47,427 nt of DNA from a bacterium (lineage in GTDB: Bacteria; J088; JAWLBW01). Positions 8,515-24,894 of this stretch are shown here, one piece after another (the first letter of the stretch is position 1; each line of letters opens with the position of its first letter). The translations under genes and the position numbers were made by a program. Where the stretch lies: positions 62,001-109,427 of the forward strand of contig JAWLHK010000003.1 in assembly GCA_041690355.1 (NCBI GenBank), given 5' to 3'. The notes beneath the pieces are model-generated. The model was not told the origin of the DNA and made no database searches. It worked only from the letters and a program-made list of their open reading frames with translations.

Positions 8515-9612
8515 ATGGATGCCCGTGCAGGAAATCGACTTTTCGGTGCGGTCGTCGCCCTTCATCCGGATCCGCTGCTCGTCTGCCGGCCCGACGGTCT
8601 CATCGTCGAGGCCAATCAGGCGGCGCGGCGTTGTTTCGGTTCGGCGACGAACGTTCGCCTTGCCGTATGGCCCACCGGCGTTGCACTCTTCGACGAGGCA
8701 TGGCGGCGGGCGGCCTCGGGAGATGGAATCGTGCAGCAGGCCCTCGAGTGGAAACTGGTTGACGGCGCGCGCCTCTTCACGCAGTCGTCGCTGCTCGGCG
8801 TCGATGAGGGGGGAGAGAAGTTCGTGCTCTGCGCGCTGCGCGATGCATCGGAGTACCGCCGCCTCTTCTCCCAGCTGGTACAGGCTGAAAAACTCGCCAG
8901 CATGGGCCGCCTCGCCGGGGGGATTGCGCACCAGTTGAACACTCCCCTGGGCTCCATCCTGCTCACGGCCGAGATGCTCCTTGACGATACGCAGAGTGCC
9001 GACGCACAGCGCGACATCCAGAAGATCATCCGTCAGGTGAACCAGTGCCGGGATGTCATCCGGCAGCTGCTGCGTTTCAGCCAACCCGGCAACACTGAGG
9101 TTCACGAGAGCTGCAGCCTGACCGACATCATCGGTGAAGTTACGGACCTGCTGGCCAAGCCGCTCGAAAACCAGGGCGTACAGGTCGAACAGAACCTGCG
9201 CTGCCGGGATTGCCGTATCTTCGGCAACCATTCGATGCTGCACCAGCTTTTCATGCACCTGTTCTCGAACGCCCGTGACGCCATGCCCGACGGGGGCACG
9301 CTGCGCATCGGCAGCGAGTGCACCCCCGGCACCGTGCGCGTCACGCTGTCCGACACGGGCCAGGGCATTCCCGAAGGTCAGGAAAACAATATCTTCGATC
9401 CCTTCTTCACGACCAAGGCCGTGGGCGATGGGACGGGACTCGGGCTTTATATTTCGCGACGCATCGCGCAGGAGCACGGGGGTAATCTCGAGCTGGCCGC
9501 CACCGGGCCCGAGGGAACCTCGTTCGTGCTGACCCTGCCGCACGCGTGTGCCGTTCACACTCTTCCCTCAGGGAGCTCACCGCATGCAGCAAGCCCTCGT
9601 CCTGGTCGTTGA
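8515..9612 (+). CDS. Soluble PAS-domain sensor histidine kinase
   Basis: PAS-like N-terminus (PDPLLVC..DGLIVEANQAA); QLVQAEKLASMGRLAGGIAHQLNTPL H-box; NARDAM, DTGQGI, FDPFFTTK, GTGLGL. No TM segment. Confidence 0.92.
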   Translation: MDARAGNRLFGAVVALHPDPLLVCRPDGLIVEANQAARRCFGSATNVRLAVWPTGVALFDEAWRRAASGDGIVQQALEWKLVDGARLFTQSSLLGVDEGGEKFVLCALRDASEYRRLFSQLVQAEKLASMGRLAGGIAHQLNTPLGSILLTAEMLLDDTQSADAQRDIQKIIRQVNQCRDVIRQLLRFSQPGNTEVHESCSLTDIIGEVTDLLAKPLENQGVQVEQNLRCRDCRIFGNHSMLHQLFMHLFSNARDAMPDGGTLRIGSECTPGTVRVTLSDTGQGIPEGQENNIFDPFFTTKAVGDGTGLGLYISRRIAQEHGGNLELAATGPEGTSFVLTLPHACAVHTLPSGSSPHAASPRPGR

Positions 9613-10957
9613 CGACGACGTGGACATGGCAGACACGTGTCGTCGTCTGCTTGAAAAGCAAGGTTATCAGGTGCGAACCGCGCAGAGCGGGGCCGTCGCG
9701 CTTGAAGTCATCGCCGAGGAGTCTCCCGACGTCGTGCTCACCGACGTACGCATGCCCGGCATGGAAGGAGACGAGCTGCTCAAGCAGGTGAAGAAGCGCC
9801 GCCCCGATCTTCCCGTCATCATGATGACCGGCTTCGGCTCCATTCAGGACGCGGTTGCCGCCCTCAAGATCGGCGCCACCGACTACATTACCAAGCCGTT
9901 CACCCGCGAACAGCTGATCGCCAGCGTCGACCGCGCCTTCGAGGTGAAGAACCTGCGCGGCGAAGTCGTCCGTCTGCGCAACGCGCTCCAGGACAAGTAC
10001 TCGCCGGCGAACATCATCGGCAACAGCAAGTCGATGCAGGGGGTCTTTCAGCGCATCCGCGCCACCGCCTCGAACGACGCGACCGTGCTCATCACGGGCG
10101 AGAACGGAACCGGTAAGGATCTGGTAGCCCAGGCCATCCACTATGGCAGCAGCCGGGCGAACAAGCCGTTCATCCCGGTAAACTGCGGCGCCCTGCCCCG
10201 CGACCTGATCGAGTCGGAACTCTTCGGACACAAGAAGGGGGCCTTCACGGGGGCCGCCGCCGACAACCAGGGGATGTTCCGCGCCGCCGACGGGGGCACC
10301 ATTTTCCTCGATGAAATCGGCGATCTGCCGCTCGACCTTCAGGTCAAGCTTCTGCGCGTTCTGCAGGACCGGCGGGTGCGTCCGGTCGGCGACACGAACG
10401 AGTACCCGGTCAACGTGCGCGTCATCGCCGCCACGAACCGTCCGCTTTCAGACATGATGCGCGACGGCTCGTTCCGCCAGGACCTCTTCTATCGCCTCAG
10501 CGTCGTGACCATCGAGGTGCCGGCCCTGCGCGAGCGCATCGACGACATCCCGCTTCTGCTGCACTTCTTTCTCAAGAAGCACGGCGACGGGCGCAAGCGC
10601 CTGTTCACCAAAGGGGCCATTCAGGTGCTCGAGCGGTATGCCTGGCCGGGTAACGTGCGCGAACTCGAAAACATGGTCGAGGGGCTCATCGCCCTCGGGG
10701 CCGGCGACTCGATCGACGTCGACGATCTGGGAGACCGGTTTCACGCCGGTGCCGCCGAACCCATGCGGACGCAGGGCAACGGTGCGACCCCTTCGCTGGC
10801 ATATGAGAGCCTCCCGACCCTCGAGCAGGCCGAGCGCGATCTGATCGACGCCGCCATCGAGCGCTGCGGCGGAAACAAGTCCAAGGCAGCCGCAATCCTC
10901 GGCATCAGCCGGACCCGGCTCTACCGCAAGCTGCGGGAGATGGGCGTTCCCGTCTGA
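9584..10957 (+). CDS. Sigma-54-dependent response regulator (REC-AAA+-Fis HTH, NtrC/AtoC family)
   Basis: VVDDD, LTDVRMP, ITKPF, GENGTGKD, ESELFGHKKGAFTGA, FLDEIG, WPGNVRELEN, GNKSKAAAILGISRTRLYRKL. GGGAG before ATG 9584. Confidence 0.95.
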   Translation: MQQALVLVVDDDVDMADTCRRLLEKQGYQVRTAQSGAVALEVIAEESPDVVLTDVRMPGMEGDELLKQVKKRRPDLPVIMMTGFGSIQDAVAALKIGATDYITKPFTREQLIASVDRAFEVKNLRGEVVRLRNALQDKYSPANIIGNSKSMQGVFQRIRATASNDATVLITGENGTGKDLVAQAIHYGSSRANKPFIPVNCGALPRDLIESELFGHKKGAFTGAAADNQGMFRAADGGTIFLDEIGDLPLDLQVKLLRVLQDRRVRPVGDTNEYPVNVRVIAATNRPLSDMMRDGSFRQDLFYRLSVVTIEVPALRERIDDIPLLLHFFLKKHGDGRKRLFTKGAIQVLERYAWPGNVRELENMVEGLIALGAGDSIDVDDLGDRFHAGAAEPMRTQGNGATPSLAYESLPTLEQAERDLIDAAIERCGGNKSKAAAILGISRTRLYRKLREMGVPV

Positions 10958-10963
10958 ACGCAG

Positions 10964-10995
10964 AAAGGGTCCGGCGCTCTTCAGACGCCGGACCC
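10964..10995 (-). terminator. Intrinsic terminator hairpin between convergent genes
   Basis: GGGTCCGGCG (10967-76) / CGCCGGACCC (10986-95), a perfect 10-bp stem, followed by TTTC on the minus strand. Confidence 0.7.
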
Positions 10996-11017: not shown

Positions 11018-14000
11018 TTACTGGGCCGCGACCTGGTTCTCCGTAATCACGAACTCGACGCGCCGGTTCGTCGCGCGTCCTTCGGCGGTGTCGTTGGGCG
11101 CGATCGGCTGGACGTCGCCCAGCCCGACGTATTCGAGGCGGCGCCCGTCAATCCCCTTCGCAACCAGGTAGTCGCGCACGGCCATCGCCCGCTTCTCGCT
11201 CAACTTGCGGTTCACGGCAGAACGACCGACGTTGTCGGTGTGCCCCTCGATGCGCACCTTTGCGACCTGCGGGTTCTCGCGGATGACGTTGGCAATTTCG
11301 TCGAGCAGCGGGTAACTGTCGAATTTGATCGTCGCCTTGCCGCTGGCGAAATGAACCTGATCGCGGATCACGATCTTTTCGCGGGTCATCTCGACCCGGA
11401 CGGGCGCCTTGGCCTCGACCTTGGGCGGAATGCGCGCCAGAACCATGCCGGCCGACACCTGGCGCCCGGCGCGAATGGAAACTTCAGTCGCCGCAGTCTC
11501 GTAACCCTCGGCCACCGCCACGACCCGGTAGCGCCCCGGCTTCAAGGTCGCTTCGGCCAACGGTTGCTTCCCGCTGACCGCGAGCTTGAGATTTTCAGGC
11601 CGGATGACGACATGGGCGTCGAGCAGTTTACCCTCGGCGTCGCGTACCGTGACCGAGAGAAATCCCTCAACCGCCTTCGCAAGAAGTGGCACCTGCCACC
11701 GGTGCGCCGGCTTGGCGAGCACGATGGCGTGTTGCGCTTCGCCGTGCTCCGGAGCCGAAGCCCGCAGCACATAGGTGCCCGTCGCCAGCCGGACGCGGAA
11801 GGTGCCCCGGGCATCCGTCGTCCCGGTGGTTACGGCTTTGCCGGCTTCCAGCACCTCGACCACGGCGCCGGCGATCGGCTTCTTTTCCCGATCGATGACG
11901 AGAAACTCGTTGGCCGACAGGAAGCGCTCATCCGGACATCCGTCGCCGTCCTGGAATCCGTCCTGATCTTCGGCCTCGAGCGGGCACTCGTCTGAAGTAT
12001 CGGCCAGACCATCGGCGTCGTTGTCCAGCTCGGGGCACCCGTCGTCGTCGGCATAGCCGTCCCTGTCTTCGGCCTCGGCGGGGCACCTATCGACCGCGTC
12101 GGCAAGACCGTCGCCGTCGGTGTCGGTGTCGACGACCCGCGCCGGCTGCATCTCAGGCGTCCACCGCACGCCGGCAAAGGCGCGAAAGGCGGGGCTGCCG
12201 TAGCCATTGGTGAGGCCGCGGCCCAGACCGAACTCGGCCCGGAAAGGCCCGGCAAAGCGCTGGTGCATGCTGAGCAGTACTTCGAGCGGCGATTCGGCCG
12301 AAGCAAAGACGTCGGCAGCCGGCGTCGTCCCGAAGAACTCGAGCGAGTAGAAGCGGGTGTTCTCGGGAATGCCCGCGCCGATGCCGTAGAGGATTTCATC
12401 GCGGAAGTCCAGGTTGACGTACTCGACCGACTGGCTGCGCACTTTATATCCCAGGTTGCCGAGCAGCGCGACCGGCCCGACGTGGCGCCCGAAGGCCGCC
12501 GTGAGTTGACCGGTCCAGGCGTCGTCGCCCATGAACGCCTCGGCCTTGCCCGAGGGAAACTTGAGGGCGCCGACGAGCGCCAGCGAGAAGGGGCCACCCT
12601 GTTCGGTGAGAAGGCGCCCCTTGGCCCAGAGGCTCATGTCTCCCAGGCCCGCGCTCTGCGCGTTGCCGCGCAGCGCGTCCTGGTTCAGGCGAAACGGGAC
12701 GTAGGCGCCCACGGCAAGCGCTTCCAGAATGCCGTAGGCCCCCGTCAGATGCCCGCCGACGATTCGTCCGACGACGTCGTATTCGGTCCCCGAGACCCCC
12801 TCGGCGACGAGGGGGTCGTGTGCGTAGTCGAAGTAGGCCGCGGCCGAGGGGGTGCCGGCCTCGAGCGAGGCGGCCCCTTCGAGCACGGTCAGACCCTGGC
12901 CGTCGGGTGTCGGATGAAAGGTCTGCGGGTCGACCTTGGCATCCTGCGCGCGAGCCGCGCCGGCCGTCGTCACGAGAACGGCCGCCGCCGCCAGGGCCGC
13001 CACGCCGCGGCGCCGCCGCAGCAGGAGCAGCCCGAGCGCGCCCAGCACCGGAATTACCGATCCAGCATCCGCCCCGGCGGTGTTGCAGCCGCCGCCGCCT
13101 TGCACCCGGACCCGCTCGGCCGCGAGGTAGTCGTCGTCGCCATCGAAGGGATCGGTACCCGCATCCCGTTCCAGGTCATCGGCGACGCCGCCGCGGTCGG
13201 TATCGATGCCGATGGTACCCGTGTGGTCGCTCTGCAGCGGGTTTCCATCTTCGCCGTCGGGGATACCGTCGCCGTCGGTATCGGCGAGCGTCGGGTCGGT
13301 TTCACCCGCATCCAGGCGCCCGTTACGGTTGCGGTCTTCGGTGGAGTCGAAGAGCCCGTCGCCATCGGTGTCGATGTTACGCGGATCGGTCTTGCGGCAG
13401 TCGGTATAGCAGCTGGTGAGCTCCAACCCGTCGCTCAGCCGGTCACCGTCGGTATCGGCTTTGACAGGATGGGTTTCGGCCGCCCCGATGATGCCGTCGG
13501 CATTGGCATCTTCTTCGCCGTCGCGCAGCCCGTCACCATCGGTGTCGGGGTTCAGCGGGTTCGTGAAGAGATTACCTTCGTACCGCATGGTCACCTCGTG
13601 TCCGTCGGACAATCCATCGTCGTCCGTGTCGGCATCCGTCGGATCGGTTTCGCCCGGATCGCGGCGGCCATCGAGGGATGCGTCTTCCAGACCGTCCCAC
13701 AACCCGTCGCCGTCGCTGTCGGGGTTCAGCGGGTCGGTTTTGCGACCGCCGCCGTAGTTGCTGTTGACCTCGATGCCGTCGAGCAAGCCGTCCAGATCGG
13801 TATCCGGATTCAGCGGATCGGTGCCGTTGACGATTTCGTCTCCGTCCGAGAGTCCGTCCCCATCCGTATCAGGATTTTCCGGGTCGGTACCGAGGTCTAC
13901 TTCTTCACCATCAGTGAGGCCGTCGCCGTCTCCGTCGGGGTTCGTCGGATACGGATCCTCGCCGTCAGGAATTCCGTCGCCGTCGGTATCGGCCATCGTC

Positions 14001-17000
14001 GGATCCGTTTCGCCGGCATCGCGGCTGCCATTGGCGTCGGCATCCTCCGCTCCATCGCTCAGGCCGTCGCCGTCGGTATCGGCATTCAGCGGATCGGTCT
14101 TGCCGTTCCCGTAGCTGCCGACGATGACCTCAAGGTAGTCTCCCAGGCCGTCGCCGTCGCTGTCGGAGGCCAGCGGGTTCGTTCCCCACGTATGAACTTC
14201 GGCGCCGTCGAGCAGACCGTCGCCGTCGGTATCGGGATTCAACGGGTCAGTACCATAGACATAGACCTCTTCACCATCGAGAAGGCCGTCGCCGTCGGTG
14301 TCGGGGTTCAGCGGATCGGTGCCGTTTGCGATCTCATCCCCGTCCGAGAGGCCGTCACCGTCCGTGTCGGGATTCGTCGGGTCAGTTCCCAGCTCGCCTT
14401 CTTCAGCGTCGTTGAGTCCGTCGCCATCGCCGTCAGGATTCGTCGGATACGGGTCTTCGCCATCAGGGATTCCGTCGCCATCGGTATCGGCCAGCGTCGG
14501 GTCGGTCTCTCCGGCGTCGACGGCACCGTTTGCGTTTGCGTCCTCGACGCCATCGGCCAGGCCGTCGCCATCAGTATCCGCATTCAGCGGATCGGTCTTA
14601 CCGTTGCCATAGGAGCCGAGCACGGCCTCGAGGTAATCGTTGAGTCCGTCGGCATCCGTATCCGGATTCAGCGGATCGGTTCCATACTGGTTCACTTCGG
14701 CGCCGTCATTCAGGCCATCGCCATCCGTATCGGCGAGGAGTGGATTGGTGCCGCGCTGGACTTCATTGCCATCCTGCAGACCGTCACTGTCGGTATCCGG
14801 GTTGAGCGGATCGGTTCCCCGAGCAAGCTCATCCGGATCGCTGAGTCCGTCGCCGTCGCTGTCGACCCGAGTGGGATCGGTTTCGCCGGCATCGACCCGC
14901 CCGTTCAGGTTCGCATCCTCGCTGCCGTCGGCCAGGCCGTCACCGTCGGTGTCGTTGCTCACTGGATTCGTGGTCGAGGCCGGATCGCTGTCTTCGGCGA
15001 ACAGTGCGCACGAGCTGTTCGTATTGGCAGCCGTCTTTCCCAATTCAAGCCCGTCGGGGAGACCGTCGCCATCGGTGTCAGGGTCGTACGGGTCGGTGCC
15101 CATGTTCAGCTCTTCGGCGTCGGTCAGGCCGTCACAATCGGCATCGCCGTTTCCGATTTCGATCACCGCACCGCGAGCCCGGCGAAGAATGGAATTGCCT
15201 GCCCAGAGGGTCGCAGCATTGATGATCCGCGTACCGTCGGGCAGGCCAAAGTCCACCTGGGCGTCGAACTGGAGGGAGAAGGTTTCTCCTGGTTTCAGCT
15301 CTTGAAACGAGAGCTTCAGCAGCCGCTCGGCCCCGACGTATTCGCCTTCAATTTCGCCACCGTCATCGTTCGAACCGTCGGCAAGCGGCACCGCGCCTCC
15401 GTTTCCGGCGAAGACCATCGATCCGGGCACATAGGAAATTCCGGAAGGAAGATAGTCGCGCAGGCTCAGCCCGTGGGCGGTGGCCGAACCGGCATTTCCG
15501 AAGCGCAGCGTATACCGGACGATGTCGCCGGAGTGCACGTTCGCCACGGAGACCGATTTTTCTAGCCAGAGCCGCGGCGCCGCGATGGAAATCTCGACTA
15601 CGTTTGAACGTGCCGAGTTTCCTGCGTTGTCCCAGGCGAGCCCCTCGTTGGAAACCACGGTCGAATCGATCCCGTTCTTGACGATGGTGTCGAACGACAC
15701 CGAGACCATCTCTCCCGGGAGCACGGCGCCGACGTTCCAGCGCAGGGTGCGGGCGATGACATCGTACTCACAGCTGCCGCAGCTGCCTTCTACGAAACGG
15801 ACATCCGGCGGCACCATGTCTTCGATGACCGCATCGGTCACGGGCGAGGGGTCGATGTTCGTGAGCACGAGATACCACCGCACGGTCGAACCCGGAACGG
15901 AGGTGGTCGCATTGCTGTACTTCGCGAGATGCAGGGCCCCTTTGGAGAGCCGCATGGAGCTCTCGGGTCGCAATTCGACCCCGTGCCAAAGGCCCGTGGC
16001 AACCGCGCGCACGCTGAATTCTCCGCGCGGCAAGCTGCCATCGACACGCAGGGCAAGTTCAACTTGCCAACTGTCATCATGGAGCAGGACAGGAAGATAC
16101 TGAGATACGTCGATCGAAATGATGGCACCGTCGATCACCGGATTGACCTCGTGTGTCACTCCGCCGGGAAGATGCAGAGTGGCCGAGCCGGGGGCGACGG
16201 AGACGCCTGGCGGAAGCTCGATTTCAAGCCCAGGAGACCCGATGTCACCGGCATGCGCTGTTGCCGTAAACACCGTATGAATGTCGCCGCCGGCGCTGGG
16301 CACCGAGCGGGTATCGGCGTCGAGCCGGAGCGAATAGACCACGTCGAGCCAGGGACGAATCACGGGTAGCAAGGTATACCCCCAGTCCGGACTTCCCGAG
16401 CGCTCGTTTGAATTGTCGTCATACTGGCCGTAGGCCAGTGAGATCGGTTTATCGGCAACCACCCGGGCGCCTGTCATGTCCTGATCGGCATGGTCAAAGG
16501 CCATGATCGGGTGCAGCACATCGACCAGGTAATAGGGGTCGCCCGACGGCCCGTCCGCGGGATCGGCGCTGCCGTCTCGGGTCATGTCAACGAGGTCCCA
16601 TATGCCGTCACCATTGAGATCGAACCGGACCTTGGTCTCCTGCTGGATTGCGGAGACCCAAATGGCGTTGTTGTTGCTCCCTGCCCGGTTTCCCGGGGCG
16701 TACGGAACAGGCATCTCCGTGCCCAGATAGTAGGAGGGCACCAGCGTGTAGCCCCAGTCGAAATCACGGTCCGTATCATAGGCGGCGAGTGCGTAGAACG
16801 GCTCGTCGCTCATGAGTCGCGCACCACTACCCTGCGGCAGATAATGGCCTACCACATCCGAGTACGCGACACTTTTTCCCGGGGGGATCTGAAATTCAGT
16901 TCCCCCGAGGCTCATAGCGTCGTATGCCGTGACCTCGATTGGGCGGCCCCAGGGGTTGAAGAGGTAGAGTTGGGTCGGGGCCGCCGAGGTTCCGCGTGTC

Positions 17001-17899
17001 TGCGTGACGTAATCGGTGCCGTAGATGGAGTCCGGGACGCTGTTGTAGAAGCGGCTCTGATACGCGCCGGAGCCGTACGTGTGCATGCCAAGCTGTACGG
17101 GGTTATTGGCTACGATGGTCGACCCTTCATATATGGTGCGCTGCGTTCCCGCGGCTGCCTGCCCGTTGATGTAACCCATCGACGAGTAGCTTTCACCCCG
17201 ATCGAGAACGATGATCGCGTCGGGATCCTGACCATTACCGACCGTAATCTGCGTATTGTCTTCGAGGGCCTGCACCTCGATGAAGACGTACTTGAATGCC
17301 GCATAGGACCCTGCGTCGCCCCCTGTCTCCGTATAGGAATCGACGCCGACCGGGATGGTGTAATACAGTGCGGTTTCGAGCGCCTTCACCGGCCGCAATT
17401 CCCAGGAATCGCCGATTTCGATGGTCTTCAGCGGCCACATCAGATGCACGGCACTCACCGGGCCGCCGATCGACAGAATGCGATCGCCGCCGTCATACCG
17501 AATGGCCGTGCCACGCGGGCCGATCGGAACCCAGGCAGCCGTTTCTTCTGTGCTCTGGAGGGTCAGGGGCTCACCGCGGCGCAGCTCGAAGCGTTGCGTC
17601 GTGGGGCCCGGCTGATTGATCGGATCGTCGTCAAAGCCATCTTCCCAATGGTCGTATACGATCACCTGGCGGTCGAGTGAAGCCGCAAGAGTGATGACGC
17701 TTTCCATTCCCCGTGTGGCAGGGTTGAGCGGCTTGCCCTCAGCGGCGGCGACCGCCTCGAAGCTGCGATACATATTCTCTTCGTTCCCGAGAACGAAGTA
17801 TTCCTGGATGCCGGACGGAATTTCGGCCGCCTGGGCCGCTCCCGCCATCCAGAGAACCCACCCCGCCAGGAGTAACCCCAGGCCCCTCGCCTTGTGCAT
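11018..17899 (-). CDS. Giant 2293-aa surface protein: IgGFc-binding-like and DUF11 domains, Ca-binding repeats, internal MYXO-CTERM-like tag, beta-barrel, TSP3 repeats, carboxypeptidase-regulatory-like domains, OmpA domain
   Basis: Signal peptide ending AQA. IEVQALEDNTQITV and VVADKPISLAYGQ (IgGFc-binding-like); DUF11-type LAKYS..PGSTVRWYL..N..DMVP and LEKSV..GDIVRYTLRFGN..DYLP; many DTDGDGLxD repeats; VQGGGGC-TM-RRRR; C-terminal VHFASGKATI..IEGHTDNVG..LSEKRA..NRRVEF (OmpA). Confidence 0.9.
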   Translation of the reverse strand: MHKARGLGLLLAGWVLWMAGAAQAAEIPSGIQEYFVLGNEENMYRSFEAVAAAEGKPLNPATRGMESVITLAASLDRQVIVYDHWEDGFDDDPINQPGPTTQRFELRRGEPLTLQSTEETAAWVPIGPRGTAIRYDGGDRILSIGGPVSAVHLMWPLKTIEIGDSWELRPVKALETALYYTIPVGVDSYTETGGDAGSYAAFKYVFIEVQALEDNTQITVGNGQDPDAIIVLDRGESYSSMGYINGQAAAGTQRTIYEGSTIVANNPVQLGMHTYGSGAYQSRFYNSVPDSIYGTDYVTQTRGTSAAPTQLYLFNPWGRPIEVTAYDAMSLGGTEFQIPPGKSVAYSDVVGHYLPQGSGARLMSDEPFYALAAYDTDRDFDWGYTLVPSYYLGTEMPVPYAPGNRAGSNNNAIWVSAIQQETKVRFDLNGDGIWDLVDMTRDGSADPADGPSGDPYYLVDVLHPIMAFDHADQDMTGARVVADKPISLAYGQYDDNSNERSGSPDWGYTLLPVIRPWLDVVYSLRLDADTRSVPSAGGDIHTVFTATAHAGDIGSPGLEIELPPGVSVAPGSATLHLPGGVTHEVNPVIDGAIISIDVSQYLPVLLHDDSWQVELALRVDGSLPRGEFSVRAVATGLWHGVELRPESSMRLSKGALHLAKYSNATTSVPGSTVRWYLVLTNIDPSPVTDAVIEDMVPPDVRFVEGSCGSCEYDVIARTLRWNVGAVLPGEMVSVSFDTIVKNGIDSTVVSNEGLAWDNAGNSARSNVVEISIAAPRLWLEKSVSVANVHSGDIVRYTLRFGNAGSATAHGLSLRDYLPSGISYVPGSMVFAGNGGAVPLADGSNDDGGEIEGEYVGAERLLKLSFQELKPGETFSLQFDAQVDFGLPDGTRIINAATLWAGNSILRRARGAVIEIGNGDADCDGLTDAEELNMGTDPYDPDTDGDGLPDGLELGKTAANTNSSCALFAEDSDPASTTNPVSNDTDGDGLADGSEDANLNGRVDAGETDPTRVDSDGDGLSDPDELARGTDPLNPDTDSDGLQDGNEVQRGTNPLLADTDGDGLNDGAEVNQYGTDPLNPDTDADGLNDYLEAVLGSYGNGKTDPLNADTDGDGLADGVEDANANGAVDAGETDPTLADTDGDGIPDGEDPYPTNPDGDGDGLNDAEEGELGTDPTNPDTDGDGLSDGDEIANGTDPLNPDTDGDGLLDGEEVYVYGTDPLNPDTDGDGLLDGAEVHTWGTNPLASDSDGDGLGDYLEVIVGSYGNGKTDPLNADTDGDGLSDGAEDADANGSRDAGETDPTMADTDGDGIPDGEDPYPTNPDGDGDGLTDGEEVDLGTDPENPDTDGDGLSDGDEIVNGTDPLNPDTDLDGLLDGIEVNSNYGGGRKTDPLNPDSDGDGLWDGLEDASLDGRRDPGETDPTDADTDDDGLSDGHEVTMRYEGNLFTNPLNPDTDGDGLRDGEEDANADGIIGAAETHPVKADTDGDRLSDGLELTSCYTDCRKTDPRNIDTDGDGLFDSTEDRNRNGRLDAGETDPTLADTDGDGIPDGEDGNPLQSDHTGTIGIDTDRGGVADDLERDAGTDPFDGDDDYLAAERVRVQGGGGCNTAGADAGSVIPVLGALGLLLLRRRRGVAALAAAAVLVTTAGAARAQDAKVDPQTFHPTPDGQGLTVLEGAASLEAGTPSAAAYFDYAHDPLVAEGVSGTEYDVVGRIVGGHLTGAYGILEALAVGAYVPFRLNQDALRGNAQSAGLGDMSLWAKGRLLTEQGGPFSLALVGALKFPSGKAEAFMGDDAWTGQLTAAFGRHVGPVALLGNLGYKVRSQSVEYVNLDFRDEILYGIGAGIPENTRFYSLEFFGTTPAADVFASAESPLEVLLSMHQRFAGPFRAEFGLGRGLTNGYGSPAFRAFAGVRWTPEMQPARVVDTDTDGDGLADAVDRCPAEAEDRDGYADDDGCPELDNDADGLADTSDECPLEAEDQDGFQDGDGCPDERFLSANEFLVIDREKKPIAGAVVEVLEAGKAVTTGTTDARGTFRVRLATGTYVLRASAPEHGEAQHAIVLAKPAHRWQVPLLAKAVEGFLSVTVRDAEGKLLDAHVVIRPENLKLAVSGKQPLAEATLKPGRYRVVAVAEGYETAATEVSIRAGRQVSAGMVLARIPPKVEAKAPVRVEMTREKIVIRDQVHFASGKATIKFDSYPLLDEIANVIRENPQVAKVRIEGHTDNVGRSAVNRKLSEKRAMAVRDYLVAKGIDGRRLEYVGLGDVQPIAPNDTAEGRATNRRVEFVITENQVAAQ
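13130..15150 (-). repeat. About 26 tandem Ca-binding DxDGDGLxDxxE..GTDPxNP repeats, including a 498-bp internal duplication
   Basis: Units counted in the translation. The block GSYGNGKTDPLNAD...GEDPYPTNPDGDG...DGLLDGxEV occurs twice; matching DNA CATTCAGCGGATCGGTCTT is at 14083 and 14581. Confidence 0.9.
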
Positions 17900-18147
17900 A
17901 GCATCCCCCGCTTGTAAGCGTCATCCCCCGGTACCGGCTTCATGCCGTACCGCCCTATGTTTCGTGCCGTAGACAGCGCCGCGTGCAAAGCAGATCGGAT
18001 ACACGGCGCCCGGCTTCTCTCCATTAGCCGACACACTTGCCGTTTTGTCAAGGCGACCCTCCAGAATGCAAGGGGGCGAAGTCGCAGCCGCGCGCCCCCC
18101 TTGACATTCCGCTTGCGAAGCCTCGGCCGCTCGGATTCAATGACCGC

Positions 18148-19133: not shown

Positions 19134-20483
<1,350 letters not shown>

Positions 20484-20501
20484 GGCGTTATTGTACCTTG
20501 C

Positions 20502-24894
<4,393 letters not shown>

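Follow-up and report, generated by a model that had tools for sequence, protein, structure and literature searches.

A candidate secretory polyprotein joining a sorting-tagged surface protein to a TraB-like outer-membrane barrel

The gene discussed here has two close described counterparts, the TraA/TraB pair and MXAN_5598. TraA is a tagged surface protein and TraB its partner, a β-barrel followed by TSP3 repeats and an OmpA domain; their genes overlap by four bases, and the available text of one study gives a TraA:TraB ratio of 1:1 together with an AlphaFold model of the TraA head on the TraB barrel (PMC12045341; for further background, PMC3325183 and the Haft preprint 10.1101/2023.06.07.544157). 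In the Discussion of a more recent paper, Guo, Haft and Wall (2025) describe MXAN_5598 as an adhesin, an internal MYXO-CTERM tag, a barrel and OmpA, liken it to TraA plus TraB, and propose gene fusion and processing of its N-terminal part (PMC11980579). Our subject is another case of that kind, a 2293-residue frame in a 47,427-nucleotide stretch of bacterial DNA (GTDB lineage Bacteria; J088; JAWLBW01) from GenBank assembly GCA_041690355.1, contig JAWLHK010000003.1, positions 62,001 to 109,427 of the forward strand, which as a whole is called the window below. A sequence-only reading of the window had taken this gene for an undescribed system, a description that the published layout of MXAN_5598 overtakes. 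The available text of PMC11980579 holds no mention that we found of a second signal peptide, barrel release or a docking strand, and literature searches on polyproteins with internal signal peptides, on a link between TraB and FapF/COG4313, and on internal MYXO-CTERM tags with a second signal peptide returned nothing relevant beyond it (Sah, Cao and Wall 2020 lay outside their coverage). The conserved second signal peptide, the repeated fusion and fission on the barrel tree and the predicted docking contact reported here were not found in the literature searched. The layout alone is no longer news; a mechanism with two cuts would be.

To our knowledge, there are few descriptions of a bacterial precursor that is split at an internal signal peptide to give one surface and one outer-membrane protein. 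The cytochrome b-c1 precursor FbcH of Bradyrhizobium japonicum is said to carry an internal signal sequence and reportedly is cut into two proteins, an account that our search left unconfirmed; it differs in that both products are in the inner membrane, with neither a sorting tag nor an outer-membrane partner. For the window gene we consider it fairly probable that the product is a polyprotein of the secretory pathway: myxosortase and signal peptidase I would cut it, leaving a surface protein with a lipid anchor and a wall-tethered barrel on which the surface protein then docks again. The parts of this precursor (P0001), all on the minus strand, are as follows.

11018..17899: whole open reading frame, uninterrupted, 2293 residues.
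17828..17899: N-terminal Sec signal peptide, residues 1-24, ending AQA↓A (sequence reading and hydropathy).
16340..17827: N-terminal surface domain, residues ~25-520, weakly IgGFc-binding-like (PF17517 27.3 bits, cut-off 25.6).
15155..16339: Ig-like stalk, residues ~521-915, two DUF11 repeats (PF01345 64.6 bits; TIGR01451).
13130..15154: bacterial TSP3-type Asp-rich stalk, residues 916-1590, 24 DxDxDG motifs (PF18884 251 bits).
13088..13111: predicted docking strand, residues 1597-1604, directly N-terminal of the tag Cys (interface of the complex model, motif counts).
13007..13105: internal MYXO-CTERM tag, residues 1599-1631 (TIGR03382 over its cut-off, TIGR03901 borderline), with a Gly run from 1601, Cys1605 at 13085-13087, helix 1 at 13019-13060 and RRRR at 13007-13018.
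12947..13018: putative second, internal signal peptide, residues 1628-1651, with RRRR as its n-region, helix 2 and ARA↓Q (hydropathy, hairpin and Ala-x-Ala counts).
12161..12946: predicted 12-stranded outer-membrane β-barrel, residues 1652-1913, TraB-like, of FapF/COG4313 fold (AlphaFold2, VIA-align, NF033763).
11930..12136: periplasmic TSP3-type repeats C-terminal of the barrel (sequence reading).
11432..11911: two carboxypeptidase-regulatory-like/PEGA β-sandwich spacers (PF13620 58.2 bits; PF08308 22.9 bits).
11042..11389: OmpA-like peptidoglycan-binding domain (PF00691 81.6 bits).

The window gene shares with MXAN_5598 a surface region, an internal MYXO-CTERM tag, an outer-membrane barrel and OmpA in one frame, and differs from it in its cargo, its lineage (a small phylum, of which five genomes were compared) and its two extra β-sandwich spacers. 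Genes in the ftsA-ftsZ position given for MXAN_5598 share the junction of tag and signal peptide, and FtsZ lies downstream in 36 of 78 loci; one such locus (L043:2899-11823) carries two genes of the tag-signal peptide-barrel type, one after the other, in the ftsA-ftsZ interval. The window gene is not an ortholog of MXAN_5598, since it does not lie between ftsA and ftsZ and has no AgmC-type N-terminus (NCBIfam profiles gave no match to residues 25-533). The comparison with TraA/TraB, proposed in the sequence-only reading, holds for one half. The C-terminal half has the barrel-TSP3-OmpA architecture of TraB, with the TSP3 repeats after the barrel as in TraB (PMC6372800), and the barrel is homologous to that of TraB (NF033763, E 1.2e-10), although the score of 171 bits stays well under the curated cut-off of 700. 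The N-terminal half is no TraA homolog: Pfam and NCBIfam give only IgGFc-binding-like, DUF11 and TSP3 domains, its stalk is Asp-rich rather than Cys-rich, and it has no PA14-like variable domain. One gene stands in place of two, and nothing points to membrane exchange. CglD was also considered and rejected, as the score for NF033765 (416.8 bits, over the cut-off of 400) is spread over six stretches, the best of them in the TSP3 repeats, and no lipobox was seen.

The evidence for a polyprotein starts with the junction. The internal tag had been reported at V1599-A1651 (13105-12947), and both its position and its letters are as claimed: Cys1605 is followed by a helix of 14 residues, by RRRR (1628-1631), and then by another helix that ends in the ARA↓Q site (1651/1652). 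Besides the N-terminal signal peptide, these two helices are the only 15-residue windows in the protein with a mean hydropathy above 1.6. The junction piece scores 26.6 bits against TIGR03382 (cut-off 15.85) and is borderline for TIGR03901 (cut-off 20), with 19 for the piece and 20.1 in the genome search. All three parts of a MYXO-CTERM tag (Cys motif, hydrophobic helix, Arg cluster) are present, together with an N-terminal signal peptide, several tagged proteins per genome, and myxosortase and type II secretion genes; the tag departs from the usual C-terminal position in that 662 residues follow RRRR, an exception for which there is a precedent in print (PMC11980579). To find relatives, a barrel-only query was chosen that leaves the junction out, so the junction could not bias the matches. 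It returned 2898 representatives at E ≤ 0.001, and the best 150 of them, the window protein included, were examined: 46 have at least 90 residues before the barrel and 104 have fewer. A helix-basic loop-helix hairpin is found in 45 of the 46 long relatives, 42 of which also have the Cys; applied to control positions, the test gave a positive at 0 of 602 in the cargo and at 3 of 1206 downstream. Among the 104 short relatives it fires once, in a truncated fused protein. Ala-x-Ala follows the last helix in 40 of the 46 fused and 56 of 79 stand-alone proteins, compared with 142 of 1125 barrel windows whose length is about the same, and the h-regions are alike in median hydropathy (2.74 fused, 2.52 stand-alone). 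The tag Cys is invariant in alignment A3 (51 rows), and the internal signal peptide sits where stand-alone barrels have their own. The junction of tag and second signal peptide with a shared Arg cluster is thus conserved, as the sequence-only reading required, and we infer that the precursor may be cut both at the tag and at ARA↓Q.

Three fusions without the tag Cys (P0030, P0067, P0130) carry a different sorting domain, CFI-box-CTERM (NF041770, ~105 bits, cut-off 40). After it come a helix, a basic loop, a signal peptide and a same-family barrel that lacks the OmpA tail. The P0130 cluster includes a member labelled candidate division TA06, and a literature search on CFI-box-CTERM found no relevant paper.

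A barrel had been expected in residues 1652-1915, and AlphaFold2 predicts one with 12 strands for residues 1652-1916 from an alignment of 103 sequences (pLDDT 95.4, pTM 0.91); the single-sequence fold reached a pLDDT of 33, and the alignment-based fold was therefore used. The best match in VIA-align is FapF (5o65; Z 23.7, rmsd 3.1, 228 aligned), followed by the COG4313 channel (4rl8; Z 21.6, rmsd 3.3, 237 aligned), with KdgM (Z 19.7) and autotransporter barrels (19.2 at most, for NalP) below them. The 12 strands and the N-terminal segment before strand 1 in the model agree with a FapF/COG4313 fold (Pput2725; 5o65, 4rl8) over ~230 aligned residues. The identity is 15-16%, the window barrel has a C-terminal TSP3-OmpA tail, and nothing indicates transport. 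A type V autotransporter was rejected as a description: ~380 residues follow the barrel, and the linker before it is a double hydrophobic hairpin, not a soluble linker. A barrel-only scan of metagenome contigs gave 0 confirmed relatives among 179 pattern matches.

Relatives of the gene include fused forms and also split ones, for which the sequence-only reading had suggested a search. Each half also exists as a protein of its own, the cargo in homologs that stop at a terminal tag and the barrel in the short relatives counted above. The junction is fused at the same point in a protein 54% identical over the region (P0002) and in the gene of a same-family genome (G001, L007). At the DNA level, split genes lie next to each other at L017, L015, L016, L125, L129, L208, L216 and L250; L015 has an ATGA overlap like that of traAB, and one in-frame stop separates the halves at L016 and L125. 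All three barrels found in the window genome (G000) are fused with the same junction, the other two at C8:102296-108064 (+; L005) and C4:292921-295761 (+; L006). The paralog L005 has a fused counterpart in G002 and a split one in G001 (L017), where the tag, a stop, and a barrel gene with its own Met and signal peptide follow one another (barrels 63% identical). In a FastTree phylogeny of 168 barrels, the label fused or stand-alone needs 35 changes and, from starred branches, no fewer than 17 for the fused label; P0013, which looks frameshifted at the junction, was left out, and 7 rows were unlabelled. Some stand-alone gene calls may be truncated fusions, so 35 is an upper-leaning estimate. Compared over their first 500 residues, 27 long cargoes form 16 groups, and with the repeated fusion and fission this marks the barrel as a reusable module attached to many cargoes. 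A tagged gene that lost its stop codon ahead of the barrel gene would become such a fusion, and synthesis would then be fixed at 1:1.

Several relatives show further variation. The closest ortholog, L007 (G001:C83), has an apparent frameshift in the barrel that coincides with 10 consecutive N and reflects a gap in the assembly, not a real break. The L005 frame has no OmpA, and the directly next gene, which starts with a LysM-like motif by eye, may supply the wall anchor; a similar gene also follows the split counterpart in G001 (L106). Six Corallococcus barrel genes (L079, L080, L082, L086, L093, L097) have long N-termini resembling a decayed junction, with a basic cluster and signal peptide and no tag, and are perhaps recent fissions of a fused gene. 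In the split pair L114 (G049), the stop falls inside the upstream tag, just before the Cys, which could be a broken gene or a sequencing error.

The sequence-only reading had also paired the two halves at 1:1, and a structural model supports binding of that kind through the strand before the tag Cys. For the barrel with residues 1540-1605, the complex score is 0.82, compared with 0.27 for the best of three controls. Of solved pairs, 116 of 157 reach the score mark applied, as do 2 of 215 mismatched ones; these counts carry over only roughly here, where our own alignment was used and calcium was included. The runs share at least 68% of contacts, and the partner pLDDT is at least 68. In the model, the tightest contacts place residues 1597-1602 on barrel loops 1695-1703 and 1894-1904. 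Counted along the strands, these are the first outer loop and the last, and they contain Pro, Leu and Gly residues that are almost invariant. Contact on the outer loops would put Cys1605 at the outer leaflet, as the model requires. From the modelled strand a motif was drawn up (a hydrophobic residue, any residue, Gly, then a small or basic one, at most 11 residues before the Cys), and this was counted across tags. It occurs in 31 of 43 fused tags, where the script took the wrong Cys in at least three of the misses, and in 2 of 46 tags that have no barrel in at least 900 downstream bases; these 46 remain from 58 control loci after removal of three without a tag, two with too little flank and seven with a barrel. 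Seven barrel-linked cases were new after the motif had been defined, and six have it (L168, L188, L208, L216, L227, L250; not L173).

Together these results suggest how the polyprotein could be processed. Sec would export the N-terminal part, with signal peptidase I removing residues 1-24. Helix 1 would then halt transfer and RRRR would remain cytoplasmic, while helix 2 would restart export for the barrel, a topology read from a hairpin whose conservation is given above. Cys1605 would be lipidated and myxosortase would cut just after it, and by analogy with TraA the 1580-residue product would go to the surface via type II secretion. The window genome encodes a myxosortase-core protease (124 bits, cut-off 100), as do three of the four other genomes of its small phylum at that cut-off, and GspD (575, cut-off 351). 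Signal peptidase I would cut ARA↓Q at 1651, the modelled barrel would be inserted in the outer membrane, and OmpA would grip peptidoglycan. At the surface, the pre-Cys strand is predicted to pair with the first outer loop of the barrel and to pack on the last, a contact modelled with support from sequence. Such pairing would leave the surface protein held by a wall-anchored post, and force-bearing attachment to surfaces or cells would be its likely purpose. MXAN_5598 makes every step testable in a laboratory strain with an existing myxosortase deletion, and the predicted docking strand is a defined site to mutate when asking how TraB-type barrels serve their tagged partners.

A number of points weigh against this proposal. 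Cleavage has been observed for no family member, both cuts being read from sequence, and in the available text of PMC11980579 the action of myxosortase on an internal tag is itself a proposal. PMC4158809 speaks for the proposal in that, as far as its available text goes, it places MXAN_5598 in outer-membrane vesicles, with an N-terminal-half peptide in all three vesicle preparations; the peptide covers residues 741-755 of 2699, and since the tag of the ortholog lies 619 residues from the end, it does fall in the N-terminal half, yet this evidence is one low-abundance peptide. The myxosortase of the window genome is under the cut-off of every named subtype, and that of G002 scores 87.8, under the core cut-off. 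A genome of another phylum (G033) has a fused gene with only generic CPBP proteases and no NF040914 match, which counts against universal processing by myxosortase. As for docking, the complex model used one alignment for both chains and the controls did not, and the motif was defined post hoc from fused sequences whose rows are related. The motif is absent from a probable TraA tag (L173), the L017/L195 tag and, by eye, L005, and it is present in L207, L224, L162 and L176, which have no barrel after them. The adhesin role suggested for the cargo derives from its domain type.

The alternative that survives best is that only signal peptidase I cuts. The barrel would be freed and the tag would stay unprocessed, with the N-terminal part either kept by helix 1 or the hairpin or shed by some other protease. 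The fused gene of G033 would suit this, as would the reports, in the available text of PMC11980579, that MrtX was tested only on terminal tags and that some TraA reaches the surface without MrtX. However, the Cys that is invariant in A3 and present in 42 of the 46 fused relatives fits continued use of the tag, and the three CFI-box fusions that lack it have another sorting domain in its place. We regard processing by signal peptidase I alone as unlikely.

Translation of the barrel from an in-frame internal start, which would make the long frame two overlapping genes, is a weakened alternative with a small chance of being right. An ATG, GTG or TTG lies ahead of the basic residue in 52 of the 72 fused junctions with DNA, a signal peptide led by Met is plausible in L018, and the window itself has GTG at V1618 and V1633. 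On the other hand, the remaining 20 junctions, including those of the window and of M. xanthus (L040), have no start codon ahead of the basic residue in the tested span; ATG accounts for only 16 of the 72, and Met is found in 7 of 45 loops. A start at V1633 leaves no basic n-region, and any chain made in full length would have to be cut twice all the same. A ribosome-binding-site test does not discriminate here, its threshold being reached by 0 of the 72 fused junctions and also by 0 of 5 genuine barrel starts.

About as improbable is a barrel that transports its own cargo, like an autotransporter or FapF, with the modelled contact as a translocation intermediate. The ranking of fold matches speaks for it, as the polypeptide transporter FapF comes first and autotransporter barrels such as NalP follow closely. 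Two hydrophobic helices around RRRR instead indicate inner-membrane insertion, periplasmic TSP3 and OmpA domains come after the barrel, and the modelled contact is on the outer loops. TraA exits via type II secretion according to the available text of PMC11980579, GspD is present here, and three cargo homologs (L207, L211, L224) have no adjoining barrel.

Still less likely is an uncleaved bridge from the inner to the outer membrane, with no cut at helix 2. No cleaved product is on record for any member, in keeping with such a bridge, but Ala-x-Ala is conserved, split genes have an ordinary signal peptide at this position, and the ~30 residues between helix 2 and the first barrel strand are probably short for a span of the periplasm. 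Finally, an assembly or sequencing error that erased a stop between two genes, conceivable in that the split versions L016 and L125 differ by one in-frame stop, is effectively refuted by independent fusions in P0002 and G001, at the same place as in this assembly, and further in G002, in 66 myxobacterial frames (some from complete chromosomes) and in five genomes from another phylum.

Beyond cutting and docking in the window gene, we put forward a broader and tentative idea, one with somewhat less than an even chance. TraB-like barrels of FapF fold could form a general class of outer-membrane receptors: they would recognise a short β-strand immediately N-terminal of the lipidated Cys in surface proteins with a sorting tag, and would tether these proteins to the cell wall. 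Fusion and fission of cargo-barrel pairs could have happened many times, involving at least two different tags (MYXO-CTERM and CFI-box-CTERM), and the fused forms would be true bacterial secretory polyproteins on which two membrane proteases act. If true, the pre-Cys motif would be a readable address marking barrel-anchored tagged proteins.

Regarding the cargo, the N-terminal domain (residues ~25-520) is a probable ligand-binding head, as its sequence suggests. It has an Atlas score of 0.95, of low recognition value, to clusters with PF17517 in 12-51% of members. Its 69 homologs include many with sorting-signal-like C-termini: the closest five after P0002 (P0167-P0171) terminate in a C-terminal tag, and in L227 the same head is joined to a distant barrel. 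The domain (window 16340-17827; P0172-P0233) also recurs with C25 peptidase domains, LPXTG-like tails and 'YLPxxxR' tails, and looks like an undescribed portable surface domain. The TSP3 stalk contains internal DNA duplications, among them one of 300 bases, 77% identical (window 13766-14065 and 14264-14563), which shows that stalk length has changed by recombination.

The fused gene is surrounded by pdxA and sigma-54 two-component genes and does not belong to a cell-division cluster. A promoter-like TTGACA, 17 bases, GCTAAT was read by eye on the minus strand at 18023-18051, overlapping the start of the divergent pdxA frame; the promoter scan reported no site, this one included. One further element lies between the gene and a convergent regulator gene.

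10967..10995: terminator-like 10-bp GC-rich hairpin with a 9-base loop (sequence reading), which has no entry in a hairpin scan limited to loops of 8.

Sensor kinase and sigma-54 response regulator pairs occur on both flanks, at 8515-10957 (+) and 19134-22763 (-).

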